Notes: generated by a model from the letters alone, not told the origin. Positions 18,583 to 39,181 are shown, numbered from the stretch's first letter. The stretch: 50,420 nucleotides of DNA from Candidatus Aminicenantes bacterium (GCA_016931595.1 JAFGEN010000354.1:1-50420); one strand, 5' to 3'. Numbers and translations are program-made.

Positions 18583-18641
18583 TATCACCCTTTTTATCAC
18601 CCTCAGGGGTGATTGACCCCCTTGACGCTTCCCGCGAAAAT
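18583..18641 (+). promoter_or_regulatory. Putative regulator-binding site and promoter upstream of the PilZ/LuxR cluster
   Basis: TATCACCCT direct repeat (18583, 18595); palindrome ATCACCC-TCAG-GGGTGAT (18596-18613) abutting TTGACC (18613-18618); possible weak -10 GAAAAT 17 bp downstream. Confidence 0.5.
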
Positions 18642-18676
18642 AGCCACGTCGATAGAAACCATAAGGAAGCGATGAC

Positions 18677-19039
18677 ATGGTGACAAAGATTCCGGCGGAC
18701 AACATGGACCTTCTGGGGCCGAAGAAGCAGGGCTTCACCTTCCCCCTGCCCACCCAGGTCGAAGGGCTGAACGCCAAGGGCCGGGACTTCTCCGAGGAAA
18801 CCGTCCTGACCTTCATCAGCCACGAGGGTTCCTCGTTCTGCCTGAAAAATCCAATCCAGGTCGGTTCCCGATTGAAAATGATCGTCGACCTCCCGGAACG
18901 GCTCGCCGACAATGTCCCCCTTAAGCTCGTCATCCGCGGCCGGGTGGCCAAAATCGAGGCCGTCTCGGGCGGCAACAGCGCCCAGCGGGTGACGCTCAAA
19001 TTCGACAGCAAATACATCATCAAGCCCGAGGACGCCTAA
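18677..19039 (+). CDS. PilZ-fold protein lacking the RxxxR motif
   Basis: Aligns by eye with 20199-20591 (LP-x-V-x-G...G..F.E.T...IS..G..F.L...G..L...LP...I.G.V); the RxxxR position reads KKQGF. Confidence 0.7.
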   Translation: MVTKIPADNMDLLGPKKQGFTFPLPTQVEGLNAKGRDFSEETVLTFISHEGSSFCLKNPIQVGSRLKMIVDLPERLADNVPLKLVIRGRVAKIEAVSGGNSAQRVTLKFDSKYIIKPEDA

Positions 19040-19040
19040 G

Positions 19041-19385
19041 ATGCCTGAAGACGGAGAAAAACCCGGCTCCCGGACATTCGAGATCGCCCTGCCCGCCCTG
19101 ATCCAAGGTTTAGATAAGGGCGAGCGCGAATTCGCCGAACAGACCGTGGTGTCAACCATCAACGCGGAGGAAGCCGTCGTCCTCCTTCGGTCGAAAGTCA
19201 AGCCGGGAGCCAAGATCCGCCTCTCGCTCCACATCCCCCGGACGTTCTTCCTGGAAAAGCCCCTGGACCTCAATCTGACCGGGACGATTTCGGAGATCCC
19301 CGCGCCGGAGAAGGGAGTCCGGGCGAAAGCGGCGGTCCGCGTCCGCCTGGACGATCGGTTCAGCATTCTCCCCGCCTCAGTATAA
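19041..19385 (+). CDS. PilZ-fold protein, degenerate in both c-di-GMP motifs
   Basis: Paralog of the neighbours (LPALIQGLD...EFAEQTVVSTINAEEA...PGAKIRLSLHIP); both RxxxR and [DN]xSxxG are lost. Confidence 0.65.
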   Translation: MPEDGEKPGSRTFEIALPALIQGLDKGEREFAEQTVVSTINAEEAVVLLRSKVKPGAKIRLSLHIPRTFFLEKPLDLNLTGTISEIPAPEKGVRAKAAVRVRLDDRFSILPASV

Positions 19386-19414
19386 GGAATCTCCGCGGCC
19401 GGTCCCCCTCTTTC

Positions 19415-19443
19415 TTGACTTCCTCATCTTCGTCGGATAGGAT
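19415..19443 (+). promoter_or_regulatory. Sigma70-type promoter for the LuxR regulator
   Basis: TTGACT (19415-19420), 17 bp spacer, TAGGAT (19438-19443). Confidence 0.6.
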
Positions 19444-19491
19444 TACCTCGAAATCGATGAACCCTCATTCTACGATTCAGGGGTCAACCCT

Positions 19492-20181
19492 ATGACAAAA
19501 AAAACCGCTCCGGCCCAAGCCGCCAAGAAGACCTCCGTTCTCCTGTATTGCCCCTCGGACCTGATCCTCGCCGGGATCCTGAAGTCCCTGGAAACCGACG
19601 AGCAGATCGAGGTTGTGGCGGTCGAGAAGGGAACCATCGATTCCTTCATGGGGGCCATCCGCCGCCTTCGTCCCCAGGTCATCCTGTTCACCAGCGCCGA
19701 AGCGATGCCCAACATGCGGGAGATCTGCAAGGCCATCCGGGACATCTCCCGGGACCAGATCAAGACGCAAATGCTGCTGCTGGGCAACATCCCCTCCCAT
19801 GAGGAAATCGTCAGCCTGATCAATGTCGGGGCCCGCGGTTATTTCGACCTGAACGACCCGTCCGGCCAACTGCCCGAGGCGGTCCGGGTTCTGGCCAAGG
19901 GCGAGATCTGGCTGCCCAGGGACAAGATGTCCAGCATCATGGATCGGATCATTTCCGTCGTCGGCCGGGAGATCAAGGAAAAGACGCTGGACCAGCTGAC
20001 GCCGACCGAGTTCCAGGTCCTCAAGCTCATCGGCCAGGGCAAGTCCAACGACGAGATCGCCACGACCCTGTTCATCAGCAAGAATACCGTCCGCTCCCAC
20101 ATTAAAAGCATCTACGCCAAACTCGACACCCACAGCCGTCTTCAGCTCGCTCTTTACGCGATCAATTCGGCTCTCTTCTGA
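19492..20181 (+). CDS. LuxR/NarL-family regulator with an atypical receiver (CsgD/VpsT-like)
   Basis: C-terminal LTPTEFQVLKLIGQGKSNDEIATTLFISKNTVRSHIKSIYAKL HTH; receiver lacks the acidic pocket (LLYCP), the phospho-Asp (VILFT) and the Lys (GYFDL); GEIWLPR motif. Confidence 0.9.
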   Translation: MTKKTAPAQAAKKTSVLLYCPSDLILAGILKSLETDEQIEVVAVEKGTIDSFMGAIRRLRPQVILFTSAEAMPNMREICKAIRDISRDQIKTQMLLLGNIPSHEEIVSLINVGARGYFDLNDPSGQLPEAVRVLAKGEIWLPRDKMSSIMDRIISVVGREIKEKTLDQLTPTEFQVLKLIGQGKSNDEIATTLFISKNTVRSHIKSIYAKLDTHSRLQLALYAINSALF

Positions 20182-20198
20182 TCACGAGGGAAAGGATC

Positions 20199-20591
20199 AT
20201 GGCCATGCGTACGAAATCCTCCGCCAAAGCCGCTGCCTCCCTCGTCTCCGCTCAAATCGCCCGGAGAAGAGAAGGCCGCTTCGAGATGCCCCTGTCGGCC
20301 GACGTCCGGGGGTCCCTTCCCCGCGGATCGACCTTCCAGGAAACGGCGAAAATCCGGAACATCAGCTCGACCGGCGCCTACCTCTACCTCCAGGCGGCGG
20401 TCATCGTCGGAACCAAGCTGACGCTGGCCATTTCGCTGCCGGCAAGAGCCACCGGCGGAAAGCCTCTCCGGTTGAAAATAGCCGGTTCCGTCGTCAGGAT
20501 GGAAAAGGCCCGCAAGACCTCCCGCAAGCTGGGCGTCGCCGTCCGGTTCGCCAGGGAATACCGGTTCGTCGCCGCGCCGACGCGGTCCTGA
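20199..20591 (+). CDS. PilZ domain protein with canonical c-di-GMP-binding motifs
   Basis: RREGR (RxxxR), NISSTG ([DN]xSxxG), GSVVR...GVAVRF. Confidence 0.85.
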   Translation: MAMRTKSSAKAAASLVSAQIARRREGRFEMPLSADVRGSLPRGSTFQETAKIRNISSTGAYLYLQAAVIVGTKLTLAISLPARATGGKPLRLKIAGSVVRMEKARKTSRKLGVAVRFAREYRFVAAPTRS

Positions 20592-20601
20592 CCCGGTTCG
20601 A

Positions 20602-21237
20602 ATGCTCCGCGTCGCCCTGACCGGAGGCATTGCCTCGGGGAAGTCTGTTGTCGCCGAAATCTTCCGACAACGCGGATTCCATCTTTTCTCGGCCGACCGC
20701 GCCGGCCGCGACTTCATGGCTCCCGGCGGCCCGGCATATTCCCCGATCGTCGAAAAATTCGGGCCGTCCATTCTGGCCGGCAACCAAACCCCCGGGGCCC
20801 CCATCGACCGGTCCGCCCTGGCCGCGATCCTCTTCTCCGACTCCGAAGCCAAGCGGTTCGTAGAGGGCGTGGTTCATCCGCTGACGATCGCAGCCATGAA
20901 GGCGGCGGCGGCCCGCCTGGAAGCCGAAGGCCGGACGGACGTCTTCGTGGCCGAATCCGCCCTGACCGTCGAAGCCGGCCTGGTCGAGGCTTTTGACCGG
21001 ATCATCGTCGTCCACTGCGACACGGAGACCCAAGTCCGCCGGCTGATGGACCGCGACGGAATCGGGCGCGAAGCGGCCCTGGCCCGGATCCGGACCCAGA
21101 AGCCGGTCGAGGAAAAGCTCCGGTTCGCCGATTTTGCCGTCGATTCGTCTGGGGAGATGGAAGAAACGATCGCCCGGGCTGAGGCCGTCGCCTCGCTTCT
21201 CTTGGATGAAGCCCGGGCCGGCCGGTTCAACCCTTAA
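20602..21237 (+). CDS. coaE: Dephospho-CoA kinase
   Basis: ALTGGIASGKS P-loop, IDRSALA...F, VHP, RLMDRDG...RIRTQ. Confidence 0.95.
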   Translation: MLRVALTGGIASGKSVVAEIFRQRGFHLFSADRAGRDFMAPGGPAYSPIVEKFGPSILAGNQTPGAPIDRSALAAILFSDSEAKRFVEGVVHPLTIAAMKAAAARLEAEGRTDVFVAESALTVEAGLVEAFDRIIVVHCDTETQVRRLMDRDGIGREAALARIRTQKPVEEKLRFADFAVDSSGEMEETIARAEAVASLLLDEARAGRFNP

Positions 21238-22138
21238 GGGCGGCGGCCAGGAGCGGAATCAGGATTTCGTGGGGTCCGACGAAGTAATATCCCTTTCCCT
21301 TTTTACCAAGCGGCCTCCGGACGACGTTTTCGGCCGGCCGGTAATGCTTGATGAAATCGAACACCGCCGTGGAGAATCCGTCCAGGCGGCCGCCCCCGTT
21401 GCGGATCAGGGAAACGGCCTTGAGGAAGACCTCGGGCAGAATGACGGCCGAACCGACATTGAGGAATATCCCTCCGCCGTCCAGCCGCCGGACTTCCCCG
21501 CAGAAAAGATGAAAATCGCGGAGCGATGCGGCCCCGATCGCTTCGCCGCTCGCCTCCGGATGCATGTGGATGATGTCGGTCCCGATCGCCACATGGACGG
21601 TGACTGGAATCCCCAGCTGGTGGGCGGCACCGAGAAGGCTCCACTTTTTGTAGGGGAAGCGGGAGCGGGCGATCATCCGGCCGACGGATTCGCCCAAGCC
21701 CCGGCCCTCGGCCGCACCCTCGACGATCGCCCGGTTCAGGAAAGTTCCCGTCTCGGCGGCCATCCCGAACCGCCCGTCCCGGATTTGGGCGGCGACGTCC
21801 TCGGAGGTCTGCCCGGCAAAGGCCAGCTCGAAGTCATGGATGATCCCGGCTCCGTTGAGCGCCAGTCCGCCGACCCACCCGTCCTTCATCAAATCGATGA
21901 GGACAGGGGACAGCCCGGCTTTGATGACGTGGGCTCCCATCGCCCACAAGATCGGTTTTTCCAACTTACGGGCTGTCCGAAGGAGCCCGGCGAATTCCTT
22001 GAAATCCCGCGCGGAGAGAAGACCGGGAAGTCCGGCCAGAAAATCGGAAAAGCTCCCGCCCCGGCGGGGCGGTTTGGCGAAATCGTCCAGGGTTACCTTG
22101 CTCGGCCGGGAGGCCAGCGGATAGGTCCGGATTTTCAT
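21227..22138 (-). CDS. Deoxyhypusine-synthase-like protein of unknown function
   Basis: GAHVIKAGL, NGAGIIHDFE, TSEDV, FGMAAET, PVTVHVAIGTDIIH, GSAVILPEVFLK, GPHE; resembles the DHS-like fold family. Confidence 0.7.
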   Translation of the reverse strand: MKIRTYPLASRPSKVTLDDFAKPPRRGGSFSDFLAGLPGLLSARDFKEFAGLLRTARKLEKPILWAMGAHVIKAGLSPVLIDLMKDGWVGGLALNGAGIIHDFELAFAGQTSEDVAAQIRDGRFGMAAETGTFLNRAIVEGAAEGRGLGESVGRMIARSRFPYKKWSLLGAAHQLGIPVTVHVAIGTDIIHMHPEASGEAIGAASLRDFHLFCGEVRRLDGGGIFLNVGSAVILPEVFLKAVSLIRNGGGRLDGFSTAVFDFIKHYRPAENVVRRPLGKKGKGYYFVGPHEILIPLLAAALKG

Positions 22139-22416
22139 TGGGCTTTGGGCCCGAGGCTTTTCAGCTCCTGGCCGCAGCGGAACTTGATGCGTTTCCCCTG
22201 GGTGATATGAATCTGTTTCTGGCGGCGAATGTCGCGGCCATACCCGGTTTTCTTGGCCACAACCTTGAAGCTGCCGAAGCCCCGGATCTCGACTTTATGG
22301 CTTGCAGTCAGGGCTTCCTTCAAGGCCTCGAGGATTGCTTCCACGATTTCCAAGGACCTGGCCGCATTGAAATCCGTCTTCTTTTCAATCGCCAGGACAA
22401 TGTCGTTTTTTATCAT
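22135..22416 (-). CDS. Integration host factor/HU family DNA-binding protein
   Basis: MIKNDIV...KVEIRGFGSFKV...GR...IKF; 93 aa, basic. Confidence 0.9.
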   Translation of the reverse strand: MIKNDIVLAIEKKTDFNAARSLEIVEAILEALKEALTASHKVEIRGFGSFKVVAKKTGYGRDIRRQKQIHITQGKRIKFRCGQELKSLGPKAQ

Positions 22417-22581
22417 GGAGGGCTCCTCGAGAGACTAAAGATTAATTTTTCGCCGGGGAAATGTCAAGCTGTTCGATTGACTTACCGGAAGGTCCTTTTT
22501 ATAATGAAATCAACATGAAGAGGGCGGAGCGGGACGGGTTTGTTCCAGCCCGGCCGCAGTCCGCCCGGAGGACGTGAGAGC

Positions 22582-23211
22582 ATGTCGAAATCCGATGAGT
22601 TCCGCGAGATGCAGATTTCCAGCGGGCAGCTGGCGGCGGTGATCCTCGTCCTCCTGGCCCTTTGCGTCTTCATTTTTTACCTTGGGACGCGAGTTGGAAT
22701 GAAGAAGGCCGCCGCCTCTTCTCCCCCGGCTGCAACAAAGACCCAGGCCAAAGCCGACCCCTCGACGAAGTTCGCGCCGTCCATCTCCGAGCTGGCCGGC
22801 CAAATCCAGAAGCCGGCCGGCGCCGAAACCGCCAAACCGCAGACGCCGGTCCCGGAGAAATCGAAGACAACCGAATCAAAACCTTCCGTCAAAACGGAAC
22901 AGAATCCGGCCGCCGCGGTTAAAAAGCCGGCGGCCGCCGAACCCAAGCCGAAGACAGTCTCCCCTTCAGGGACCTACTACATTCAAGCCGGCGCCCTGGA
23001 TACGCGGGAGAAAGGGGAAACCCTGGCCCGGAGGATCGAAGGCCTGAGTTTCCGGGCCATCGTCCTGAATCCGCTGGCCGGCGACAGGAAACCGGTCTAC
23101 CGAGTTCGGGTCGGCCCCTACGAGACCAAAGAATCCGCAGAAACCGCCAGGGAAAAGCTGGCCGAAGCGCTCAAAAGAAAAACCACTGATTTCTTCCTCG
23201 TCAAGGGTTGA
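22582..23211 (+). CDS. SPOR domain cell-division protein (DedD/FtsN-like)
   Basis: N-terminal TM helix, Pro/Lys/Ala-rich linker, YYIQAGA...YRVRVGPY SPOR domain; start at ATG 22582 after GGAGG. Confidence 0.88.
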   Translation: MSKSDEFREMQISSGQLAAVILVLLALCVFIFYLGTRVGMKKAAASSPPAATKTQAKADPSTKFAPSISELAGQIQKPAGAETAKPQTPVPEKSKTTESKPSVKTEQNPAAAVKKPAAAEPKPKTVSPSGTYYIQAGALDTREKGETLARRIEGLSFRAIVLNPLAGDRKPVYRVRVGPYETKESAETAREKLAEALKRKTTDFFLVKG

Positions 23212-23225
23212 GTCCGGCCTTCACG

Positions 23226-23261
23226 GTCCGGGCGTCATCCGGACTGACATTTATTTTTTTT
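23226..23261 (+). terminator. Putative intrinsic terminator after the SPOR gene
   Basis: GTCCGG/CCGGAC stem (23226-23244) followed after a few bases by TTTATTTTTTTT. Confidence 0.45.
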
Positions 23262-23314
23262 CATTGCGAACCCTTTATGTCTACGGTTCGTATATATATG
23301 TGCCCGGAGGCTTC

Positions 23315-23644
23315 ATGAGATTATTGACACGGACGGAAGAAATCATCCTGCTCGCAATCTGGCGCCTGGGCCATGATGCGTACGGGATCACGATCCGCGA
23401 TGAGGTCAATAAGACGACCGGAGAGGAATGGGGGCTGGGCGCGGTTTACCCCTTTCTCAGCCGCCTGCATAAAGCCGGATATGTCAGAACCCTGACCAGC
23501 TGTTCGACACCCGAGCGCGGCGGCCGGCATAAGATCATGTACCGGCTGACGGACTCCGGAAAAGAGGCTTTGGCCAAAATCCAACAGGTCAATGCCCGGG
23601 CCTGGGACGGCATTCCCGGTTTTATTTTCAAGAAATCCTCATGA
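23315..23644 (+). CDS. PadR-family transcriptional regulator
   Basis: EEIILLAI...AYGITIRDE...GAVYPFLSRL...ERGGR...YRLTDSG; GGAGG RBS; upstream inverted repeat CGAACC-N12-GGTTCG (23267-23290). Confidence 0.92.
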   Translation: MRLLTRTEEIILLAIWRLGHDAYGITIRDEVNKTTGEEWGLGAVYPFLSRLHKAGYVRTLTSCSTPERGGRHKIMYRLTDSGKEALAKIQQVNARAWDGIPGFIFKKSS

Positions 23645-26268
23645 GGGACCAGGCCCCGCCCCCCCGTCTCGCCCTCCGCTTGCTGGACCTCTTCAGCGGA
23701 TGGGAGGACGACTACGGGGCCGCCGGCGATTTCGAGGAATTCTTCCGCGCTGTGGCCGAAGAACGCGGGATTCGGGCGGCCCGGCGGGTCTGCTGGAAGC
23801 AGGTCCTGGCCGCACTCCCCGGATATGTCAGGAACACATTGATCTGGAGCGACGCCATGCTAAAAAATTATGTTCGCATCGCCCTCAGGAATTTGTGGAA
23901 ACACAAAGGCTATTCCTTCCTCAATATCGCCGGGTTGGCGGTTGGAATGGCCTGCGCTCTCTTCATTCTCCTCTGGATTCAGGACGAGATGAGCTTCGAC
24001 CGGTTCCACGCGAACGCGGGAACGCTTTTCCGGCTCGAGCAGGAGTCGGCGACCGGGCAGGGAAAATTCCGCCATTGGTCCATGCCCTATTCCCTGGGGC
24101 CGATCCTCAGGGACGAAATCCCGGAAATCGAGGATGCGGTCCGCCTGGCCGATCAAGACACCTTTTTCATCAGGTACGGGGATCACGCCTTCTATGAGAA
24201 CAAGGTCATGGCCGTCGACCCCCAGATATTGGAGATGTTCACTTTTCCGCTCTTGAAGGGCGACCCGGCCACGGCGCTCGAACGACCCGGTTCGCTGGTC
24301 GTCACCGAGGCGATGGCCGAAAAATATTTCGGCGACACCGACCCCATAGGAAAGACGGTGACCCTCAATGACGCCCATGATTTTATGGTCACCGGCGTGC
24401 TGAAGAATCTCCCGCAAAATTCGACCTTGTCGTTCGACATGCTCATCCCCTTCGATTTCATCAAGACCATCGGCCGTTACAACGACTCCCTGGTCAACAA
24501 CAACATTCCGACCTATATCCAGCTTCATCCCGGAAGCGACCCGGCCCTGGCCGGCGGGAAGATCACCCGGCTGGTCGGCGAACGAACCCTGACCTCCATC
24601 CGAGCCGACCCGGAAATGTCGAGTTATTTCGACAGCCATCCCGAAATCCGCGGCCAGTTTGAATCCCGGACGTTCCTCCTCATGCCCCTCGTGGACATCA
24701 ATCTGTACGGAACCCGAATGGCGATTAAAAACATTTACACCTACGGAGCCCTGGCGGTCTTCGTCCTGCTGATCGCCTGCATCAACTTCATGAACCTGGC
24801 CACGGCCCGCTCGGCCAACCGGGCGAAAGAGATCGGGCTTCGGAAGGTCGTCGGAGCCCAACGCAAGAGCCTGATCGGCCAGTTTTACGGCGAATCCATC
24901 CTGACCGCTTTCCTGGCCGGCGCCTTCGCCCTCCTCCTGGTGACGCTCCTGCTTCCTGCGTTCAACGCTCTTTCCGGAAAATCGATGGCTCTTTCCGTTC
25001 TTGTCGGCGGAAAATTCGTCCTGGGGATGCTGGCCGTCACCCTGCTGACCGGGATCGTGGCCGGCAGCTATCCGGCGCTCTTTCTCTCCGCCTTCCAACC
25101 CGTCACCGTTCTCAACGGCCGCTTGCGGGGCGGGGCAAAAAGCGCTCTGTTCCGGAAAACCCTGGTTGTCCTCCAGTTCGGATTGTCGGTCTTTCTTCTG
25201 ATCGGAATGGGGGTTGTCTCCCGCCAGGTCGACTTCATGCGGAATAAAACGCTCGGTTACGACAAGGACCAGTTGATCTACCTGCCGATGCGCGGTCAAA
25301 CGGCCTCTTCCTACACCGTCTTCAAGGAACGCCTTCTCCAGAATCCCCGGGTTCTCGGGGTGACGGCGGCCCGGCATCCGCCGACGGGCATCTACGCGTC
25401 CGGCAACATCGCCGACTGGGACGGTCGAAACCCAAACCTGCGGTTCAGGATCAGCTTCGCCTCCGTCGACTTCGATTTTCCCGAAACAATGAAAATCGAA
25501 ATGGTCGCCGGGCGGGCGTTCTCGCGGGCGTTCGCGATGGACGTCGGGCGGGCCTTCATGGTCAACGAGGATGTCCCGAAGCTGATGGGGCTCGACGCCG
25601 CTTCGGCCGTGGGCCGAAGGTTCGCCTTCCGAGGGTATGAAGGAACGATCGTCGGGGTCATGAAGAACTTTCATTTTAAATCGGTCCGCGAGGCGATCGA
25701 GCCCCTGGCCGTCGTCGTCGACCCGCAGGATTTTCGCTATGCCGTCGTTCGGATCGCCGCGGGAGAGATCCCTGCCTCCCTGAACGACGTCCGGGCCGTC
25801 TGGCGCCAAACCTTTCCCCTCTTCCCGGTCGAGTATCGCTTCTTCGACGAGGATTTCGACCAGATGTACCGAAAGGATGAGCGGATGGGGACGATTCTAA
25901 AGGTGTTTTCAACCATGGCGATCCTGATCGCCTGCCTGGGATTATTCGGGCTGGCCTCCTACACCGCCGAACAGAGGACGAAGGAAATCGGCATCCGTAA
26001 AATCATGGGCGCGACATCGCCGGGAATCGTCCTGCTTCTCTCGAAGGAGTTCGCCAAGTGGGTTCTGGCGGCCAATGTGATCGCCTGGCCGGTCGCCTAT
26101 TTCCTGATGAAAAATTGGCTCCGGGGATTCGCTTACAACTCCGGGATCTCCTGGTGGCTGTTCATCGCGGCCGGAGCAGGAACCCTGGCGATCGCCCTGC
26201 TGACCGTCAGTTTCCAGGCGCTCCGCGTCACCCAAACCCATCCCGCCCGGGCGTTGAAACACCAGTAA
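23641..26268 (+). CDS. Duplicated MacB/FtsX-type ABC permease with an N-terminal prefix domain (ADOP-like)
   Basis: PPRLA...GDFEE prefix, MLKNYVRIALRNL, two FtsX repeats (ACINFMNLATARS...KEIGLRKVVGA; RTKEIGIRKIMGA); coupled to padR; no ATPase gene adjacent. Confidence 0.92.
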   Translation: MRDQAPPPRLALRLLDLFSGWEDDYGAAGDFEEFFRAVAEERGIRAARRVCWKQVLAALPGYVRNTLIWSDAMLKNYVRIALRNLWKHKGYSFLNIAGLAVGMACALFILLWIQDEMSFDRFHANAGTLFRLEQESATGQGKFRHWSMPYSLGPILRDEIPEIEDAVRLADQDTFFIRYGDHAFYENKVMAVDPQILEMFTFPLLKGDPATALERPGSLVVTEAMAEKYFGDTDPIGKTVTLNDAHDFMVTGVLKNLPQNSTLSFDMLIPFDFIKTIGRYNDSLVNNNIPTYIQLHPGSDPALAGGKITRLVGERTLTSIRADPEMSSYFDSHPEIRGQFESRTFLLMPLVDINLYGTRMAIKNIYTYGALAVFVLLIACINFMNLATARSANRAKEIGLRKVVGAQRKSLIGQFYGESILTAFLAGAFALLLVTLLLPAFNALSGKSMALSVLVGGKFVLGMLAVTLLTGIVAGSYPALFLSAFQPVTVLNGRLRGGAKSALFRKTLVVLQFGLSVFLLIGMGVVSRQVDFMRNKTLGYDKDQLIYLPMRGQTASSYTVFKERLLQNPRVLGVTAARHPPTGIYASGNIADWDGRNPNLRFRISFASVDFDFPETMKIEMVAGRAFSRAFAMDVGRAFMVNEDVPKLMGLDAASAVGRRFAFRGYEGTIVGVMKNFHFKSVREAIEPLAVVVDPQDFRYAVVRIAAGEIPASLNDVRAVWRQTFPLFPVEYRFFDEDFDQMYRKDERMGTILKVFSTMAILIACLGLFGLASYTAEQRTKEIGIRKIMGATSPGIVLLLSKEFAKWVLAANVIAWPVAYFLMKNWLRGFAYNSGISWWLFIAAGAGTLAIALLTVSFQALRVTQTHPARALKHQ

Positions 26269-28546: not shown

Positions 28547-28573
28547 ATACCGGCCTCAAGACCCGCGGTTCAT

Positions 28574-29377
28574 TCATTCCGGGCGTTTCACGCCGCGTTC
28601 CTTTTTCAGCGACTGCCAGGCCGATTCCATTTCCTCGAGGTTCGCCGTCCCCAAGGGCTTCCCTTTCTCGCGGAGGCGGTCCTCCAGGGCGGCGAAACGG
28701 CCGATAAACTTGGCGTTGGCCCGGCGAAGGGCCGTTTCGGGGTGAATCCCCAAGAGGCGGGCGGCGCAGGCTAGGGCGAAAAGACAATCCCCCATTTCCT
28801 CGGCCTGGCGGGCGGCGTCACCCTCGGCGATCGTCCGGTCAAGCTCGCCTAATTCCTCCCTCACCTTGTCCAGGGCCCCGGCCGCATCGGGCCAGTCGAA
28901 GCCGAAAGCGGCCGCCCGCTTTCCGATTTCGAAAGCGGCCTGAAGCGAGGGGGCGGTCGCCGGAATGCCGTCGAAGTGAGAGGCGCGGCTCTTTTCCTTC
29001 TTCTTCCGGAGGTTCCAGGCGTTCGTCACCTCGTCGGGAGTGCCGAGGCGCTCGCCTCCGTAGACGTGGGGATGGCGGCGGATCATCTTGTCGTTGATGC
29101 TTTCCAGGGCGTCCGAGACCGAAAACTCTCCCCGTTCCTCAAAGACCCGGGAGAGAAAGACCACCTCCATCAGGACGTCGCCCAACTCCTCGGCCGCGGC
29201 CGCAGGATCGTTTCGGTCCAGGGCGTCGATCGCCTCATGGACTTCCTCCAGAAAATAATCCTTGAGCGTTTTGACGGTCTGCTCCCTGTCCCAGGGGCAC
29301 CCATCAGGCCCGCGGAGGCGGGCCAGGATACCGACGAGCTCCTGGAATTTCTCTCCGGCTTGCTTGGAATCGATCAT
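28574..29377 (-). CDS. mazG: Nucleoside triphosphate pyrophosphohydrolase
   Basis: LRGPDGCPWDREQT, EEVHE, EELGDVL, KMIRRHPHV, GFDW, EEMGD, ANAKFIGRF. Confidence 0.96.
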   Translation of the reverse strand: MIDSKQAGEKFQELVGILARLRGPDGCPWDREQTVKTLKDYFLEEVHEAIDALDRNDPAAAAEELGDVLMEVVFLSRVFEERGEFSVSDALESINDKMIRRHPHVYGGERLGTPDEVTNAWNLRKKKEKSRASHFDGIPATAPSLQAAFEIGKRAAAFGFDWPDAAGALDKVREELGELDRTIAEGDAARQAEEMGDCLFALACAARLLGIHPETALRRANAKFIGRFAALEDRLREKGKPLGTANLEEMESAWQSLKKERGVKRPE

Positions 29378-29384
29378 GGGGTCC

Positions 29385-30548
29385 TCACGCATGGAAGGTG
29401 CAAAGAAAATCCGCGAGGGAGAGCGCCTGAATGTTTTCCCGGAGAGGATAGGGCGACGCTACCGGGGCGACGACATAGGCCTTGTCGATACGCAGGTCAT
29501 CCAAGGCCCGCCGGAATCCTTCCCCGACGGCCGGCGCGGTCGAGGCTTTGAACTCGACCGCCGTTCTCGTCCGGCCCTTCTCCAGGATCAGGTCGATTTC
29601 GACGCCCGAAGAGGCGCGAAAAAAATAGCCGTCATGGCCGGGGAATGCCGCCAGGATATTTTCCAAGCCTAAGCCTTCCCAAGACGCTCCGAACATCGGG
29701 TGCCCCATGAGATCGTTGAAGCCCCGAATCCCCGAGAGACAATGCCAAAGGCCCGGATCTCGGAAATACAGCTTGGGCGACTTGACAATCCGCTTCTTTA
29801 AATTGGCATGATAAGGCTGAAGGAGACGGAAAATGTACGTCTGTTCCAGGATCTCGACATAATTCTGGATCGTGTGGTAGGAAAGTCCCAGCGATTCCCC
29901 CAGCTTCGAGAAATTCACAGTCTGGCCGTGGAAATGGGCGCACATCCGCCAGAGACGCTTCAGCCGGGGGCTGGGAACACGGAACCCCATTTGGGGAATA
30001 TCCTTTTCCACGAACGTCCGGATGAAGTTTTCCCTCCAGGCGAAGCTCTCCTCATCATTTTTCGCCAAAAAACTTCGGGGATAGCCGCCACGAAGCCAAT
30101 ATCTCTTGAACGCCCCTTTGTTTGGCCCCAAGACCTCCCCGGCCAGAAACGGCGTCAGCTCCAGGTAGGCGATCCGGCCGGCGAGGGATTCGGAGCTTCG
30201 GTTGATTAAATCCGGCGAGGCCGATCCAAGAAGAAGAACCTGTCCGTTGGTCCCTCGGCGGTCGAGAAGGCTTCTTAAGATGGGAAAGATCTTTGGAAGA
30301 CGCTGAATTTCGTCCAAACAGATGAGCCGGCCGACGTTGTACTCGAAAAAGAGCTCCGGCCTGCTCAGCTTATTGAGATCCTCGTCGCTTTCAAGGTCCA
30401 AGTAGAGGAAACCCGGCAGTCGACCGGCCAGCTTCTTAGCCAGGGTCGATTTGCCGCACTGGCGAGGTCCGAGGATGGCCACCGCCGGATTGGCCCGCAG
30501 GGCCGCAAGGACGCCCGTCTCGAGATTTCGCTCAATATAATCATGCAT
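29385..30548 (-). CDS. AAA+ ATPase with a C-terminal DUF4143/PD-(D/E)xK-like domain (COG1373-type)
   Basis: GPRQCGKST, LDEIQ, LGSAS, ESLAGRI, RGGYP, KSPKLYFRDPG, EIDL...EFK; visibly more AT-rich than its neighbours. Confidence 0.9.
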   Translation of the reverse strand: MHDYIERNLETGVLAALRANPAVAILGPRQCGKSTLAKKLAGRLPGFLYLDLESDEDLNKLSRPELFFEYNVGRLICLDEIQRLPKIFPILRSLLDRRGTNGQVLLLGSASPDLINRSSESLAGRIAYLELTPFLAGEVLGPNKGAFKRYWLRGGYPRSFLAKNDEESFAWRENFIRTFVEKDIPQMGFRVPSPRLKRLWRMCAHFHGQTVNFSKLGESLGLSYHTIQNYVEILEQTYIFRLLQPYHANLKKRIVKSPKLYFRDPGLWHCLSGIRGFNDLMGHPMFGASWEGLGLENILAAFPGHDGYFFRASSGVEIDLILEKGRTRTAVEFKASTAPAVGEGFRRALDDLRIDKAYVVAPVASPYPLRENIQALSLADFLCTFHA

Positions 30549-30554
30549 ATTAGA

Positions 30555-30583
30555 ACCTTATCTTCTATTTGACATAATGTCAA
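30555..30583 (-). promoter_or_regulatory. Promoter of the AAA ATPase with an overlapping palindrome; predicted leaderless transcript
   Basis: Minus strand TTGACA (30583-30578), 17 bp, TAAGGT (30560-30555), 6 nt, then ATG at 30548; perfect palindrome TTGACAT-A-ATGTCAA (30569-30583). Confidence 0.6.
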
Positions 30584-30736
30584 GGATTGACGAGATTAAC
30601 CTCGACCGTGTCTTCGCTGGTTATAATGCCTCGGCAAGCGTCCGGATGCGCCGCGGACGTTCGCGGGACTTCAGGCTTCAGGGATCCCCCGGCCGTCCTC
30701 CTCGATAAGGAGACGCAGGCCACCCCTCTGAAAAAC

Positions 30737-30765
30737 TTGAAATTCCCCCCGGCCCGGTCTATCAT
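30737..30765 (+). promoter_or_regulatory. Sigma70-type promoter for DUF1844-ribF
   Basis: TTGAAA (30737-30742), 17 bp spacer, TATCAT (30760-30765). Confidence 0.6.
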
Positions 30766-30798
30766 GTTCTTTCGCAACGAACAGGAGTCGAATCTCAT

Positions 30799-31110
30799 AT
30801 GCCCGAACATGACCCCAAGGAAGATGTGGACGGCGGAGCGGACAAACCGTTTCTCCCGCCCCTGGATTTCAGCTCGATCATCGCTCCGTTTTACACCCAG
30901 GCCCTGATCAAGCTCGGCCTGATCCCGGACCCGGTCAAGGGCGAGCCCGATGTGAATCTCCCCCTGGCCCGGCGCCTGGTCGACCTTCTCGACCTTCTGG
31001 CCGACCGGACCAAGGGCCGGCTGGAGCCGGAGGAGGAGAAATTTCTCGACTCCGTCCTCTCGCAACTCAAAATGCACTACCTCGAAAAATCCGAGGCCGT
31101 CAAGCTCTGA
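30799..31110 (+). CDS. DUF1844-family protein
   Basis: DFSS...QALIKLGLIPDP...NLPLARRLVDLLDLLADRTKGRL..EE...L.QLKMHY. Confidence 0.85.
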   Translation: MPEHDPKEDVDGGADKPFLPPLDFSSIIAPFYTQALIKLGLIPDPVKGEPDVNLPLARRLVDLLDLLADRTKGRLEPEEEKFLDSVLSQLKMHYLEKSEAVKL

Positions 31111-31114
31111 ACCA

Positions 31115-32041
31115 GTGCGCGTTTTCCGAACCCTGGACTCGATCGAGGCCCCAAAACCGGGCTGGGCCGTGGCCATCGGCAATTTCGACGGCCTCCACCG
31201 CGGCCATCGCCGGATCGTCCGCCGCCTCCGCCGCGAAGCCGCGACGGCCGGCCTTCCCGTCTGCCTCCTGACGTTCACTCCCCATCCGGAAAAAATTTTC
31301 AGCCCCGACCGGATCCTGATGATCCAGACGCTGGACCAACGCCTTCGGGGCCTGTGTCGAATGGGCCTGGAGACAGCGGTGGTCCTTCCCTTCTCCAGGT
31401 CGTTGGCGCGGATGACGGCCGAAGAATTCGCCGCCTCGGTTCTGGCCGGGGCTATGAACGCCCGCCTGGTCGTCGTCGGGGCGGACTTCCGGTTCGGGTC
31501 GAAACGGCGCGGTGATGCGGCCTTTCTGGGAGACGCCGGACGCCTGCTCGGGTTTCGAACGGTCGTCGTCCCTCCCCTGGTCTACGGCGGCAGTGAGGTC
31601 AGCAGCAGCCGCGTTCGAACGGCGCTTGCGGCCGGAAATGTCGAGGACGCGGCCCGCCTTCTCGGCCGAGCCTACGAGATCGAGGGCGAAGTCGTCCAGG
31701 GTTCGGGACGCGGACGAATCATCGGCTTCCCCACGGCCAACCTTCACTCCCCCAATGAAATCCTCCCCCCCGGGGTGTATGCCACCCGCCTCTTCCGGAA
31801 AAAACGGGCCTGGAAGGCCGTGACCAACATCGGCCTCCGGCCGACATTCGGGGAACTCGAACCGACCATAGAAACCCACGTCCTGGGCGTCTCGCCCGAC
31901 CTCTACGGGGCCTACATCCGGCTTGCGTTCCTTTCCCGACTCCGGAACGAGCGAACATTCCGGGGACCGGCCGCCCTGGCCGGCGGCATTCGGGCCGATA
32001 TCGCCGCCGCCCGAAGGGTCTTTCGGCGGCTTGGCCTGTGA
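31115..32041 (+). CDS. ribF: Bifunctional riboflavin kinase/FAD synthetase
   Basis: IGNFDGLHRGH, TFTPHP, VGADFRFG, VSSSRVR, GFPTAN, GVY, NIGLRPT, ETH. Confidence 0.97.
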   Translation: MRVFRTLDSIEAPKPGWAVAIGNFDGLHRGHRRIVRRLRREAATAGLPVCLLTFTPHPEKIFSPDRILMIQTLDQRLRGLCRMGLETAVVLPFSRSLARMTAEEFAASVLAGAMNARLVVVGADFRFGSKRRGDAAFLGDAGRLLGFRTVVVPPLVYGGSEVSSSRVRTALAAGNVEDAARLLGRAYEIEGEVVQGSGRGRIIGFPTANLHSPNEILPPGVYATRLFRKKRAWKAVTNIGLRPTFGELEPTIETHVLGVSPDLYGAYIRLAFLSRLRNERTFRGPAALAGGIRADIAAARRVFRRLGL

Positions 32042-32081
32042 AGGTTCCTTATGGTATAAAAGACGGCGTCAGGAGAGAGTC

Positions 32082-32645
32082 ATGACCAATAAAATCAAGG
32101 CCGGCATCATGGATGCGGCCCGGATCAAGCGCGTCCTCGACCGCATGGCCACCGAGATCCTCGAACGCAACCGCAACCTGAAAAACCTGGTGATCATCGG
32201 CATCCCGACCCGGGGCGTTTCCCTGGCCAAGCGGATCGCCCGGACCGTCAAGGACCTGGAAAACGTGGAGATCCCCGTCGGGATCATCGACATCACCCGG
32301 TACCGGGACGATTACGCCGCTTCCTCCACCCGGGCGACATCGTCGAAATCCAAGATCCCCTTCCCGATCGAGAAAAAAGACGTCATCCTGGTGGACGATG
32401 TCCTGTTCACCGGCCGGACGATCCGGGCGGCGATGGAGGGGCTTTTCGACCTCGGCCGCCCCAGGAGCATCCAGCTGCTGGTCCTGATTGACCGGGGCCA
32501 CCGGGAGTTGCCCATCCGGGCCGATTATGTCGGCAAGGTCCTCCCGACTTCGCGCCGGGAGATGGTCCGGGTCGACCTCAAGGAAATCGACGAACACGAT
32601 GACGTCCTCATCACCGAGCCGGTCGCCCTCGGCCGGAAACGCTGA
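32082..32645 (+). CDS. pyrR: Pyrimidine operon regulator/uracil phosphoribosyltransferase
   Basis: RMATEILE, GIPTRG, DITRYRDD, LVDDVLFTGRTIRAA, DRGHRELPIRADYVGK; start at ATG 32082 after AGGAG. Confidence 0.96.
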   Translation: MTNKIKAGIMDAARIKRVLDRMATEILERNRNLKNLVIIGIPTRGVSLAKRIARTVKDLENVEIPVGIIDITRYRDDYAASSTRATSSKSKIPFPIEKKDVILVDDVLFTGRTIRAAMEGLFDLGRPRSIQLLVLIDRGHRELPIRADYVGKVLPTSRREMVRVDLKEIDEHDDVLITEPVALGRKR

Positions 32646-32649
32646 CATC

Positions 32650-33933
32650 TTGAGAACCCTGGTCCGAAACGGCCGGCTGATCGATCCACGCTCGGGGATG
32701 GACGAAGTCGGCGACATCCTCCTCGATGGAGACAGGATCGAAGCCGTCGGCGGCCGGATCGAGGCGGCCGGAGCCGGGTCCATCGAGGCTTCGGGGCTGG
32801 TTGTCGCCCCAGGCTTTATCGATATCCATGTCCATCTGCGCGAACCCGGCCAGACCCACAAGGAAACGATCGCCACCGGGGCCCGGGCCGCGGCCCGGGG
32901 CGGCTTCACCTCGGTCTGCGCCATGCCCAACACCTCCCCGGTCAACGATTCGCCCGAGGTGACGGCCTATATCTTGAAGGCGGCGGCCGGGGCCGTTGTC
33001 CGGGTCTTCCCGATCGCCGCCCTGACCCGCGGCCTACGGGGCGAGGAACCGGTCGACTTCGCCGCCCTCCGCCGGGCCGGCGCGGTCGCCTTTTCCGACG
33101 ACGGCCGGTGCATTCAGGACGAGGCCCTGATGAAAAAGGTCATGGCCTCGGCCCGGGACCTTGACGCCCTGGTCATCGACCATTGCGAGGACCAAGGCCT
33201 CTTCGGGAACGGCGTCGTCAATGACGGCCCCCTCGCCCGCCGCCTGAACCTCCCCGGCATCCCGGCTTCGGCCGAGGAAACGATCGTGGCCCGGGACATC
33301 CGGCTGGCCGGGGAGGGGCTGGGCCGAGTTCACATCGCCCATCTCAGCACCCGTGGCTCAGCCCGGCTGGTGGCCGAGGCCCGCAGGCGCGGCGTCCCGG
33401 TCACAGCCGAGGTCACCCCCCATCACCTCCTTCTCACGGAAAACGAGGTCGAGGCCGGCGGGACAAATTTCAAGATGAACCCGCCGCTGCGGTCCGCCGA
33501 GGATGCGGCCGCCCTGATCGAGGCCGTCCGGAACGGGGAGATCGACGTCTTTGCCACCGACCACGCCCCCCATGCCGCGGCCGAAAAGGCCCGGGGAATG
33601 AAGGAAGCGCCCTTCGGCATCGTCGGGCTGGAAACGGCCGTTCCGCTGCTTCTGGACCGACTTGTCCGGACCGAAATCATTCCCCTCCTACGGTTCGTGG
33701 AGATGTGGTCGACTCGGCCGGCCGAGATCATGAAATGGGCGGACAAGGGCCGCCTCGAGCCGGGAGCGGCGGCGGACCTGACCCTGCTCGATTTGAACCG
33801 CCCGATGACGGTCGACCCTGAGCGATTCTCGTCCCTCGGACGGAATACGCCGTTCGCCGGCTGGACCCTCCGGGGTGCGCCGGTGATGACGATTGTCGGA
33901 GGACGAACCGCCCACGCGGAAGTGCCATGTTGA
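32650..33933 (+). CDS. pyrC: Dihydroorotase (type I)
   Basis: PGFIDIHVHLREPG, MPNT, FSDDG, HCED, HIAHLS, EVTPHHL, KMNPPLR, ATDHAPH, PFGIVGLET; TTG start at 32650 inferred. Confidence 0.94.
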   Translation: MRTLVRNGRLIDPRSGMDEVGDILLDGDRIEAVGGRIEAAGAGSIEASGLVVAPGFIDIHVHLREPGQTHKETIATGARAAARGGFTSVCAMPNTSPVNDSPEVTAYILKAAAGAVVRVFPIAALTRGLRGEEPVDFAALRRAGAVAFSDDGRCIQDEALMKKVMASARDLDALVIDHCEDQGLFGNGVVNDGPLARRLNLPGIPASAEETIVARDIRLAGEGLGRVHIAHLSTRGSARLVAEARRRGVPVTAEVTPHHLLLTENEVEAGGTNFKMNPPLRSAEDAAALIEAVRNGEIDVFATDHAPHAAAEKARGMKEAPFGIVGLETAVPLLLDRLVRTEIIPLLRFVEMWSTRPAEIMKWADKGRLEPGAAADLTLLDLNRPMTVDPERFSSLGRNTPFAGWTLRGAPVMTIVGGRTAHAEVPC

Positions 33934-34691
33934 GAACATTCTTCAGGAAAGCCAAAGCCAAGCCCGATCACGACCTGGAAAAGAGGCTCGACTACCGGTT
34001 CAAGGACCAGACCCTTTTTCACCTGGCTCTCACCCACAGCTCCCATGCTTACGAGTCCAAGGGCCTTCCCCTGGACAACGAACGCCTTGAATTCCTCGGC
34101 GACTCGGTCGTCGGGCTGATCGCCGCCGATTTTTTCTACCGGCTGTATCCCGAGGCCAACGAAGGCGACCTGTCCAAGTTCAAGTCTTCGGCCACCAGCA
34201 CGGTGGGGCTCTCCGAATACGCCCAGCAGATTCGGCTGGACGAGGTGATCCACTTGGGCAAGGGCGAAGAAAAGAGCGGCGGACGGAAAAAGAGCACCAT
34301 CCTGGCCGGGTCGTTTGAGGCCCTTCTCGGGGCCATCTTCATCGACGGCGGGTACGAGGCCGCCCGGACGGTCTACGAAAAATTACTCGATGGGTCCTAC
34401 GCCAAGATCAAGAAGCAGGGGCTGGAAATCAACAACTACAAGTCGGCCCTCCAGGAATTCCTCCAGAAGGAGGACCTGCCGGCTCCCCAGTACAAGACGG
34501 TGACGGTCACCGGTCCCGACCATCGCAAAGAGTTCGTCGTCGAGGTCGTGGTCAACAAGACCGCCTTGGGCAAGGCCAGGGGGCCCTCGCGCAAGGTCGC
34601 CGAGCAGAAAGCCGCCGAAAACGCCCTTAAAAGCTTTTTCGGGGCGCGGATCAAGGCCATCACCCCGGAAACATTTTTATTTAAATCCTGA
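33927..34691 (+). CDS. rnc: Ribonuclease III
   Basis: ALTHSS, NERLEFLGDSV, EGDLSK, FEALLGAIFIDGG, and a dsRBD (NYKSALQE...GPDH...AEQKAA). Confidence 0.98.
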   Translation: MLRTFFRKAKAKPDHDLEKRLDYRFKDQTLFHLALTHSSHAYESKGLPLDNERLEFLGDSVVGLIAADFFYRLYPEANEGDLSKFKSSATSTVGLSEYAQQIRLDEVIHLGKGEEKSGGRKKSTILAGSFEALLGAIFIDGGYEAARTVYEKLLDGSYAKIKKQGLEINNYKSALQEFLQKEDLPAPQYKTVTVTGPDHRKEFVVEVVVNKTALGKARGPSRKVAEQKAAENALKSFFGARIKAITPETFLFKS

Positions 34692-34703
34692 CCGGCTCCG
34701 CGC

Positions 34704-35735
34704 TCACTTGTTGCTGAGCAGGGCCTCGAACCAGCGCATCGACGGGATGTTCGAGGAAATAATCTTCATCACCACGATGACCGGCACGGACAGGATCATC
34801 CCCGGCACGCCCCACATCCAGCCCCAGAAAAACAGGGCGATGAGGATGGCCAGGGGGCTCAGGTCCAGGCCGGTCCCCATGAGCCTCGGCTCGATGATCG
34901 AACCGATAACGGCATCGGTGACGAACAGGATGGCCAGCATCCAGAACGCCGGCCAGAACCGTCCAAACTGGAGGAGGGCGAAGGCGAAGGGCAGGACCTT
35001 GGAGATGAACGAGCCGATGTTGGGAATGTAGTTCAGGACGAAGGTGATGAATCCCCAGAGGATGGCGTATCGGACCCCGAAGGCCATGATGATCAGCATG
35101 GAGATCAAGCCTGAGGCGAGGCTGATCACGGTCTTGAGAGCCAAGTACTTCTGGATCTGGCGGTCGATGCTGGCGGCCATCTCGACGATTTGGCCCGATT
35201 TGCGGGGGTTGGTCGAAAAGCGGCGGATCTTGCCGTCGAGCTTGTGCCGGCCGGCGATCATGAAGAACAGGAAGATCAGGACAAGGAAGATCGTCGAGAG
35301 GATCGAAACGAACGTTCCAATCGAATTCAGAAGGAAAGTGCCGACCTTGCCGATATCCAGGGTCTTGGCCCAGGCCATCGGGTCGAATTCGCCGCCGCCG
35401 GGGAGCTCGATCGTCTTGCTCCAGCCCTCGATCAATTCCTTGAGCTTGTTCCCGTAATCGGGAAGGTCCGAAGCCAGGGCCTTGCCGCTGGTGTAGAAGA
35501 GGAGGGCCATCAGGTAGAGGATGACGAAGGCGAAGAGGATCACCAGGATCAGGGACAGGGTCCGGGACAACTTGATCCTCATCAGGAAATCCTGGACGGG
35601 GGCCAGGATGAAATAAATGAACAGGGCTAAAAACAGGGGGAAGAGGACGGGCTCGGCCGTCTTGAACACGAAGCCGAGGACGGCCGCGGCGACGATCCAG
35701 GCGGCGATCGTCAGGGCCTTGTTCTCTTTGCTCAT
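34704..35735 (-). CDS. AI-2E family transporter
   Basis: Multi-TM; YLALKT, LNYIPNIGS, IEPRLMG..LDLSPL, FWGWMWGVPGMILSVP. TACAAT lies 6 nt before the ATG (probably leaderless). Confidence 0.9.
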   Translation of the reverse strand: MSKENKALTIAAWIVAAAVLGFVFKTAEPVLFPLFLALFIYFILAPVQDFLMRIKLSRTLSLILVILFAFVILYLMALLFYTSGKALASDLPDYGNKLKELIEGWSKTIELPGGGEFDPMAWAKTLDIGKVGTFLLNSIGTFVSILSTIFLVLIFLFFMIAGRHKLDGKIRRFSTNPRKSGQIVEMAASIDRQIQKYLALKTVISLASGLISMLIIMAFGVRYAILWGFITFVLNYIPNIGSFISKVLPFAFALLQFGRFWPAFWMLAILFVTDAVIGSIIEPRLMGTGLDLSPLAILIALFFWGWMWGVPGMILSVPVIVVMKIISSNIPSMRWFEALLSNK

Positions 35736-35793
35736 GGGCGTATTGTAAGGCTATCGGGGACCCCAGGTAAAGAGGGTCCTCCTCCCCCCCGAA

Positions 35794-35839
35794 TATCACC
35801 CCTGACGGGCATTGACCTGAGTCTTGACTTGAATATAAT
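35794..35839 (+). promoter_or_regulatory. Promoter of the REC-GGDEF gene with an upstream TATCACCC element
   Basis: TATCACCC (35794-35801), 9 bp, ATTGACC; TTGACC (35812-35817), 16 bp, TATAAT (35834-35839). Confidence 0.6.
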
Positions 35840-39169: not shown

Positions 39170-39181
39170 TCCTCCGGTTCC

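Follow-up and report, generated by a model that had tools for sequence, protein, structure and literature searches.

Gene organization and the two sites

Two operons in a 50,420-nt stretch of DNA from a Candidatus Aminicenantes bacterium (GCA_016931595.1 JAFGEN010000354.1:1-50420; this whole stretch is referred to as the window) are each preceded by a copy of the same short cis-element. The first, the PilZ/LuxR operon, encodes two PilZ-like proteins, a pseudo-receiver regulator of the LuxR/GerE type, and a canonical PilZ protein. The second encodes a REC-GGDEF diguanylate cyclase, a predicted source of cyclic di-GMP (c-di-GMP), and an Hpt protein. The genes for ProRS (proS) and an AI-2E transporter lie divergently upstream of the first and second operon, respectively (Table 1). 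The cyclase showed PleD/DgcR-like NCBIfam matches below the curated cut-offs. Both PilZ-like genes matched the canonical PilZ gene in tblastn searches (E 6e-10 and 3e-8 for PilZ-like 1 and 2), and neither RxxxR nor [D/N]xSxxG was seen when their sequences were read by eye. The two motifs were present together in 54 of 60 orthologs of the canonical protein; the six misses concerned RxxxR only, which was sought in the first 45 residues.

Table 1. Genes, predicted promoters, and element boxes in the window
Feature	Position	Strand	Basis and remarks
Candidate third, weaker site, TCACCC-CAAA-AGGCGA-TTGCGA	6579-6617	-	Score -8.7 with the PilZ-trained matrix; candidate only
ProRS (proS)	17017-18468	-	Pfam
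Predicted proS promoter, TTGACA-17-TAGAAT	18498-18526	-	11/12 consensus matches
Box A (AGGTGA), inverted half-site	18561-18566	+	18 nt before box B; conserved columns in ungapped alignment of 20 upstream regions
Box B (TATCACCCT), direct-repeat half-site	18583-18591	+	AAtaTC[AC]CCC in 73/75 species loci
Boxes C and D, perfect palindrome	18596-18613	+	TCAYCC-N4-GGGTGA kept in 73/75 loci
Predicted sigma-70-type promoter of PilZ/LuxR operon, TTGACC-17-GAAAAT	18613-18641	+	9/12 consensus matches
PilZ/LuxR operon	18677-20591	+	PilZ-like 1, PilZ-like 2, regulator, canonical PilZ
PilZ-like 1	18677-19039	+	No Pfam or NCBIfam match; paralog of third PilZ gene by tblastn
PilZ-like 2	19041-19385	+	No Pfam or NCBIfam match; paralog of third PilZ gene by tblastn
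Pseudo-receiver LuxR/GerE regulator, proposed binder	19492-20181	+	Pfam GerE
Canonical PilZ	20199-20591	+	PF07238, E 3.1e-7; RREGR and NISSTG present
AI-2E transporter	34704-35735	-	Pfam
Predicted AI-2E promoter, TTTACC-18-TACAAT	35742-35771	-	Conserved in same-genus and g6 relatives (by eye)
Cyclase copy of the element, strong box C (TATCACCC), degenerate box D (GGGCAT)	35794-35811	+	Kept in 6/6 same-genus genomes
Predicted cyclase-operon promoter, TTGACC-16-TATAAT	35812-35839	+	11/12 consensus matches; conserved in genus
Cyclase operon: REC-GGDEF diguanylate cyclase (35914-36903) and Hpt protein (36884-37231)	35914-37231	+	Pfam

The first site (18595-18618, +) reads TATCACCC-TCAGGGGTG-ATTGACC and the second (35794-35817, +) reads TATCACCC-CTGACGGGC-ATTGACC. 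The first contains a perfect 7-4-7 palindrome, ATCACCC TCAG GGGTGAT, with an extra half-site, TATCACCCT, 12 bp 5' of it; in the second, the right half is degenerate. Moreover, positions 18603-18613 are the exact reverse complement of 35795-35805. A preliminary description of the window had reported these letters and coordinates, all of which were verified on the sequence, and had placed both sites against a TTGACC -35 box, a placement borne out by our promoter scan. It had also pointed to a CTTGAC shortly after each site. Those letters are indeed there, but they do not serve as the -35 box, since the abutting TTGACC takes that role, and they are not conserved in the PilZ promoters of the same genus.

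When a pattern of 15 specified bases was searched with at most one mismatch, the window gave two matches, both at the known sites, versus 0.00 in 100 dinucleotide shuffles. In the whole assembly of this genome (G000; 2.93 Mb, 373 contigs, 61.6% G+C), scanned on both strands, the exact pattern TATCACCC-N9-ATTGACC occurred only at 18595 and 35794, with about 0.003 matches expected from composition. Exact TCACCC-N4-GGGTGA was found only three times in the genome, in each case outside the open reading frames (ORFs) taken as genes by eye. A further copy of TATCACCC, within an HU/IHF-like gene (22200-22207, -), was set aside as a chance match.

Architecture and conservation of the element

An ungapped alignment of 20 orthologous upstream regions of the PilZ operon revealed four conserved blocks at fixed spacing, namely A (AGGTGA), B (AAtaTCaCCC), C (TCAyCC), and D, the last reading AGGGGTGATTGACC together with the -35 box and followed 17 nt further on by a -10-like hexamer. 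Together, boxes C and D make up an inverted repeat of 18 bp in contact with the -35 hexamer, whose first base is shared by box D at both window sites; one or two more GGTGA boxes often lie upstream. The cyclase copy has a weak C-rich box B at about 35781-35789. From these alignments, the predicted operator is composite and polar, with several TCACCC-type half-sites fused to a TTGACC -35 box.

The spacing between boxes was specific: TCA[CT]C-N6-GG[TCG]GATTG matched the genome six times versus 0-2 times at N3-N9, and TC[AC]CC-N18-GG[TCG]GATTG matched six times versus 0-3 times at N15-N25. A general matrix detected eight genome sites above 20 bits and none in either the reversed or the Markov-shuffled genome. 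For calibration, the maximum score was 0.1 among 1000 random 400-nt segments and 5.9 for 1400-nt segments. A reversed-pattern control gave no matches in five genomes and proved too lenient, as it also gave about zero in unrelated Acidobacteriota that contain 0-8 matches to the real pattern; the background was therefore taken from genomes of other orders and from shuffled or reversed genomes. A coding mask based on the longest ORFs was dropped as well. With 91% of the genome counted as coding, it misassigned true intergenic sites, and no intergenic-enrichment statistic is reported.

A search of 41 related genomes detected the PilZ/LuxR cluster in 39; the related records returned were all metagenome-assembled genomes, with no isolate among them. 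The PilZ loci comprised 80 further species loci, 75 of which had enough upstream DNA for scoring, and the element was present upstream of the operon in 73 of the 75. TTGACC was kept in 66 of the 73 distinct orthologous sites, and a good -10 hexamer was present in only 14. When starts predicted from sequence, not mapped, were taken 7 nt past the -10 hexamer, the repeat centres fell at about -43.5 (PilZ) and -42.5 (cyclase).

Within the same genus, box C, the -35 box, and TATAAT were kept upstream of the cyclase in all six genomes. The cyclase gene of most other genera lacks a separate promoter and lies behind a gene for a PAS-HisKA-HATPase-REC-REC hybrid kinase (Pfam, six ORFs and G018). When 5 kb upstream was scanned, a composite site was found directly before the kinase-cyclase operon in 12 of 13 other-genus genomes (scores 9.8-35), and loci L035 and L050 had full composite sites directly before the cyclase gene. 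Such composite sites across genera mark the cyclase operon as an old and conserved member of the regulon described below.

The preliminary description had proposed a genome-wide motif scan and phylogenetic footprinting of both intergenic regions. The motif proved to be above background, with the two exact matches and the eight high-scoring sites reported above, and the element was kept upstream of both the PilZ/LuxR and the cyclase operons. The two sites are copies of one conserved, promoter-proximal cis-element.

A predicted type IV pilus and c-di-GMP regulon

The PilZ-trained matrix, used together with the spacing patterns, picked a small set of further places in the genome. According to Pfam, the genes following these sites include pilB (MshEN and T2SSE domains), pilT, and pilC; coaD followed by pilM, pilN, pilO, and pilP; a REC/HEAT/GT2 cluster; an SLT transglycosylase gene; and a gene for a coiled-coil protein. 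A pilin-like gene and a gene for an RlpA-like lipoprotein were recognized by eye from the sequence. Upstream of pilBTC, AAAATCACC...GGTGATTGACC was found at the same place in 28 of 30 relatives, and 22 of these 28 sites had a TTGACC -35 hexamer. Upstream of coaD-pilM, TTCACCCC...TTCAYC...GGGGGATTGCC was found in 26 of 30, about 700-800 nt 5' of pilM. The box B position is filled at pilB, pilM, and the cyclase operon, and a GGTGA box similar to box A lies 5' of box B at pilB, pilM, and the exopolysaccharide cluster. This last cluster was present in only 8 of 41 genomes, seven of which had the site.

In five near-complete relatives, the core pattern gave 5-9 matches per genome and 34 in total. 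Among 30 fetched loci, 24 lay upstream of a co-oriented ORF (ORFs read by eye) and 20 of these 24 had a box B. By Pfam, the ORFs behind the core pattern include pilin-like, SLT, RlpA-like, PAS-kinase, receiver, protease, and arginase genes. Candidate sites at C145:2940, C182:13388, and C326:28474 scored 14-18 bits. Three other places, C27:15494, C181:3717, and C313:27934, fit the spacing patterns but sit in coding-looking DNA and were rejected.

Since the element also stands before pilus and exopolysaccharide genes, it defines a type IV pilus/c-di-GMP regulon of the Aminicenantales and not a two-gene loop. More specifically, the predicted gene set comprises PilZ-PilZ-LuxR-PilZ, (sensor kinase)-REC-GGDEF-Hpt, pilBTC, coaD-pilMNOPQ, pilin-like genes, lytic transglycosylases, and, where present, the exopolysaccharide synthase cluster. 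The preliminary description had envisaged one regulator that controls the cyclase and its effectors in a loop. The common conserved element on both operons agrees with that view, but its two-gene extent does not, as the circuit spans the type IV pilus machinery.

The pilB promoters (L136-L165) carry a second repeat, TCACCC/TAGCCT-N4-GGGTGA, about 28 nt upstream of box B. The pilB control region is thus about 90 bp long and contains five half-sites.

The candidate regulator

The protein encoded at 19492-20181 has a C-terminal helix-turn-helix (PF00196, E 1.9e-19, residues 167-223), and no Pfam Response_reg match was obtained in it even at E 10. In an alignment with VraR, the DD pair corresponds to CP, the acceptor Asp to Thr, and the conserved Thr to Gly. 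The structural model has a five-stranded alpha/beta receiver-like fold (mean predicted local distance difference test score, pLDDT, 75.6). On these features, the protein is predicted to be a phosphorylation-independent pseudo-receiver of the NarL family. Its WLPR segment aligns with WLTR of VpsT and is invariant in 81 of 81 sequences, with nearly invariant flanks and helix-turn-helix. In the model, a helix (143-157) directly follows WLPR, and I149 and M150 align at or beside I141 of VpsT. In VpsT, c-di-GMP binding depends on the motif Arg, and c-di-GMP-dependent dimerisation requires a residue on the helix that follows (PMC3359988). The NCBIfam CsgD model scored 58.6 bits versus a cut-off of 250. 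The earlier label of a VpsT-like protein needs correction, since VpsT is no nearer to this NarL-family pseudo-receiver than LiaR/VraR are.

Several circumstantial findings connect this protein with the element. The best-scoring and most conserved site precedes its own operon, as is typical of autoregulated factors, and the regulator carries the only DNA-binding domain found in the annotated target operons. An ortholog (65%-100% identity, search threshold E <= 1e-25) was found in 20 of 20 genomes of the same order versus 0 of 41 genomes of other orders of the class. The pilB and pilM upstream regions in five other-order genomes scored like random DNA (-15 to -35), and the core pattern had only five matches across 11 other-order genomes, a count that includes the unpublished G089, on which no claim rests. 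The length of the inverted repeat, 18 bp, and the distance of about 10-11 bp between its half-site centres suit GerE-type dimers (TraR, LuxR, NarL), and the C-D repeat has the size of LuxR/TraR-type boxes. We consider it probable that the protein binds the operator as dimers or oligomers, which would place its own operon under autoregulation.

Proposed mechanism and its alternatives

The account that we favour, with somewhat better than an even chance of being right as a whole, is that of an order-wide operator bound by this LuxR-type protein, which activates its targets within a c-di-GMP feedback circuit. The dimers or oligomers would bind the boxes and activate transcription from a position like that of a lux box. 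At class II promoters, lux and tra boxes are 18-20-bp inverted repeats near -42.5 that touch or overlap the -35 hexamer and bind a GerE-type dimer. The element resembles them in its inverted repeat of about 18 bp, which touches the -35 box with its centre near -42.5 of the predicted starts. It differs from them in that extra half-sites extend it to 60-90 bp, the -35 is near consensus, and the protein has no autoinducer-binding domain. If the LuxR-type protein is the binder, activation is the probable outcome.

The octamer TATCACCC alone is not enriched, with 33 genome matches versus about 72 expected from base composition, which cautions against over-reading the two sites. Several observations weigh against the favoured account. 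The cyclase site scored only 11.8 bits with the general matrix and ranked 19th, and the Markov-shuffled genome had six sites above 10 bits; the significance of this site therefore rests on the exact common pattern and on its conservation in relatives. The cyclase region of G022 is weak (-7.7). The element is missing from PilZ loci L055 and L110, from L139 (diverged) and L140 (none) at pilB, and from L179 and L189-L191 at pilM. The VpsT-type motif W[FLM][TS]R is not matched, as the third residue is Pro and not Thr or Ser; we take W[F/L/M][T/S]R to be the four-residue c-di-GMP motif of the VpsT type. In phmmer searches, 5hev (VraR-named) was matched at 1.5e-21 versus 1e-13 for VpsT, which was covered over the C-terminal half only, and Foldseek ranked LiaR (5hev, 2.4e-12) first and VpsT tenth. 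Most target promoters have a near-consensus -35 box, and those of pilB, pilM, and the G000 cyclase also have a good -10 hexamer. The operator of VpsT is unrelated: it is an AT-rich, degenerate 10-bp T-box (PMC8754643), in contrast to the GC-rich TCACCC-N4-GGGTGA. Finally, the co-occurrence of regulator and motif follows a single phylogenetic boundary and amounts to one evolutionary event, so any other order-specific factor would give the same phyletic pattern.

This last point also speaks for the most serious alternative, in which a different Aminicenantales-specific factor binds the element and the LuxR-type protein is merely one of its targets. The link from protein to DNA is inferred, and some box arrangements, such as GGTGA-N8/9-TCACC at pilM and the N18-spaced B-D pair, go beyond a simple GerE dimer. 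However, the position of the strongest site on the regulator's own operon, the size of the C-D repeat, and the lack of any other DNA-binding domain in the annotated target operons all speak for the protein itself, and we regard another factor as unlikely, though with a real share of the probability.

It is also conceivable, and somewhat less probable again, that the LuxR-type protein binds the element but mainly represses, which would result in negative autoregulation and negative feedback on the cyclase. Because most target promoters have a near-consensus -35 box, an activator is not obviously needed. Box D extends into the -35 hexamer by one base, and a protein bound there might just as well keep sigma region 4 off the promoter. 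The TTGACC counts at the PilZ and pilB sites and the 11 of 12 consensus positions in the G000 cyclase promoter fit such occlusion. Against it stand the two repeat centres, which match the geometry of class II activation by LuxR and TraR, together with the poor -10 hexamers of most PilZ promoters and the poor -35 hexamers (TTGCCC) of the pilM promoters, both of which fit dependence on an activator. The class II activator position claimed in the preliminary description thus agrees with the predicted centres and with the abutting TTGACC, and the near-consensus -35 boxes leave room for repression.

In the favoured account, c-di-GMP made by the co-regulated cyclase would feed back on the system through the regulator's invariant WLPR segment, the co-transcribed PilZ proteins, or both. 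A post-translational route may exist as well. The PilB ATPase of this genome (G000 C182:25972-27705; L131:4972-6705, -) carries an MshEN domain (PF05157, E 6.9e-21), and such a domain in MshE is reported to bind c-di-GMP (PMC11731258); c-di-GMP could therefore also act on pilus assembly after translation.

A more speculative extension, which we consider rather doubtful, is that the canonical PilZ protein docks on the regulator and relays c-di-GMP into transcription, with the degenerate PilZ paralogs acting as further adaptors. A co-fold of the regulator with canonical PilZ and two c-di-GMP molecules scored 0.51 (runs 0.49, 0.51, and 0.58), at a level (0.60 or under) at which 18 of 157 solved complexes and both passing mismatched pairs were found; the best of three controls scored 0.00. 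The runs agreed in at least 48% of contacts and the partner pLDDT was at least 75. The mark applied to such co-folds is reached by 116 of the 157 solved complexes and 2 of 215 mismatched pairs. This modelled complex may serve as a lead that weakly supports docking; it is not evidence for the favoured account. If docking does occur, a switch made of a PilZ adaptor and a transcription factor would drive the type IV pilus genes, its own operon, and the cyclase that makes the signal. No wiring of that kind was found in literature searches.

The preliminary description had allowed that the element could instead serve the divergent proS and AI-2E genes. In its favour, both window sites are located between divergent genes; 67 of 80 loci have ProRS as their upstream neighbour, and 8 of 13 kinase-cyclase regions have AI-2E within 5 kb. 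Each of the two genes, however, has its own predicted and conserved promoter on the other strand, and in the case of proS the promoter blocks cattcta and ttgtcaa are conserved in most of the 20 upstream regions (by eye). The element is polar (A, B, C, D, -35, -10) and joined to the plus-strand -35 box. It is oriented towards the PilZ or cyclase genes in every case, and towards the downstream gene at pilB, pilM, and the other targets as well. It also persists in L059, L064, L081, and L090, where ProRS is not the neighbour, and in the kinase-cyclase regions L269-L273, where AI-2E is not. It is therefore very unlikely that proS and AI-2E are the targets in place of the PilZ and cyclase operons, although an additional effect on these neighbours may occur in the remaining, syntenic loci.

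The least probable alternative, to which we give almost no weight, reads the inverted repeats not as a protein site but as a structure in the nucleic acid, be it an RNA hairpin, a riboswitch-like element, or a terminator: the arms are complementary, the G that faces the C/T position of box C is invariant and could pair as G-U in RNA, and complementarity is extended at some pilB sites, but no Rfam family matched, the inner pairs fail in 11-18 of the 28 pilB sequences, covariation was 0.138 versus 0.124 when shuffled (90 of 500 shuffles reached 0.138; slid control 0.157), the boxes lie upstream of the predicted -35 and hence outside the transcript, and no terminator-like site was found in scans of the promoter regions.

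Comparison with known systems

The closest precedent for the proposed circuit is the VpsT/vpvABC feedback loop. VpsT binds 23 loci, mostly motility, biofilm, and c-di-GMP genes, via a degenerate AT-rich palindrome and activates the cyclase operon vpvABC in a positive loop (PMC8754643). The two regulators are alike in the LuxR/FixJ/CsgD type, in a phosphorylation-independent receiver-like domain, and in a sixth helix after W-L-x-R, predicted here from the model. Their targets, which for the Aminicenantes protein are putative, are likewise motility, matrix, and c-di-GMP genes, with several boxes per promoter, and a cyclase operon is a direct target of VpsT and a predicted one here. Besides its operator, VpsT differs in having WLTR instead of WLPR, and in both sequence and fold the Aminicenantes protein resembles LiaR/VraR more than VpsT. 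The regulon considered here is centred on the type IV pilus, its operon has three PilZ-type genes, and the boxes are fused to the -35 hexamer. Unlike VpsT, the Aminicenantes system is known from sequence alone.

Enterobacterial CsgD is a LuxR-family biofilm regulator that activates adrA, a diguanylate-cyclase gene; what the cyclase makes acts on PilZ-type receivers. CsgD retains the phospho-acceptor Asp and targets curli and cellulose. The likeness lies in a LuxR-family regulator wired to a diguanylate cyclase with PilZ-type receivers; the differences are that no phospho-acceptor Asp aligns in the Aminicenantes protein and that pili take the place of curli and cellulose. A search of a review (PMC3913822) yielded no CsgD consensus sequence. 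No published work on gene regulation in Aminicenantes was found in literature searches.

Aminicenantes are abundant in anoxic sediments, and the present result provides a testable in-silico map of one of their circuits, with a defined operator, a candidate regulator, and coherent targets. The target set brings together type IV pili, peptidoglycan-remodelling enzymes, an exopolysaccharide synthase, a phosphorelay-controlled cyclase, and PilZ receivers. In vitro work or a surrogate host would suffice to test all parts of the circuit, with no need to grow the organism itself. The proposed circuit would carry over to the Acidobacteriota an arrangement known from VpsT and CsgD, in which a LuxR-type regulator is wired to a cyclase, with another DNA specificity and an invariant WLPR. 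In kind, the finding is not surprising. The logic is that of VpsT, and what differs is the DNA motif, the third residue of the WLPR motif, the pilus-centred targets, and the three PilZ genes.

Additional observations

In 12 of 13 other-genus regions (L261-L273), the gene for the hybrid kinase, a protein of about 800-1090 aa, separates the operator from the REC-GGDEF gene. In the genus of the window, the kinase gene is missing there (35736-35913) and the cyclase begins directly after the promoter. A 1047-aa ORF (37718-40861, -) convergent with the cyclase-Hpt operon had no Pfam match at E 1e-5. At the AI-2E gene, the predicted -10 hexamer ends 6 nt before the ATG (35733-35771), an arrangement conserved in same-genus relatives, and the mRNA may be leaderless.

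Genes for coenzyme A synthesis are found on operons of the regulon. The coaE gene (CoaE, 20602-21237) follows the PilZ/LuxR cluster, and coaD (G000 C77:16579-17118; L134:2579-3118) is the first gene after the pilMNOPQ operator, an arrangement conserved across the order.

The candidate third site of the window lies upstream of the gene at 4639-6561 (-), between it and its tandem paralog at 6648-8552 (-); the products of the two genes are exported proteins of 635-640 aa (640 aa for 4639-6561) with no Pfam family. A search of 41 related genomes found the gene at 4639-6561 in only four, which all belong to the same genus, and three of the four (G000, G001, and G002) keep the site. Finally, within C133:1199-1265 (L133) of G000, a perfect TCACCC-TTAA-GGGTGA repeat stands 12 nt ahead of another composite site. 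Downstream of the pair is a gene for a 458-aa coiled-coil protein whose sole match, DUF4407, is below the curated cut-off.

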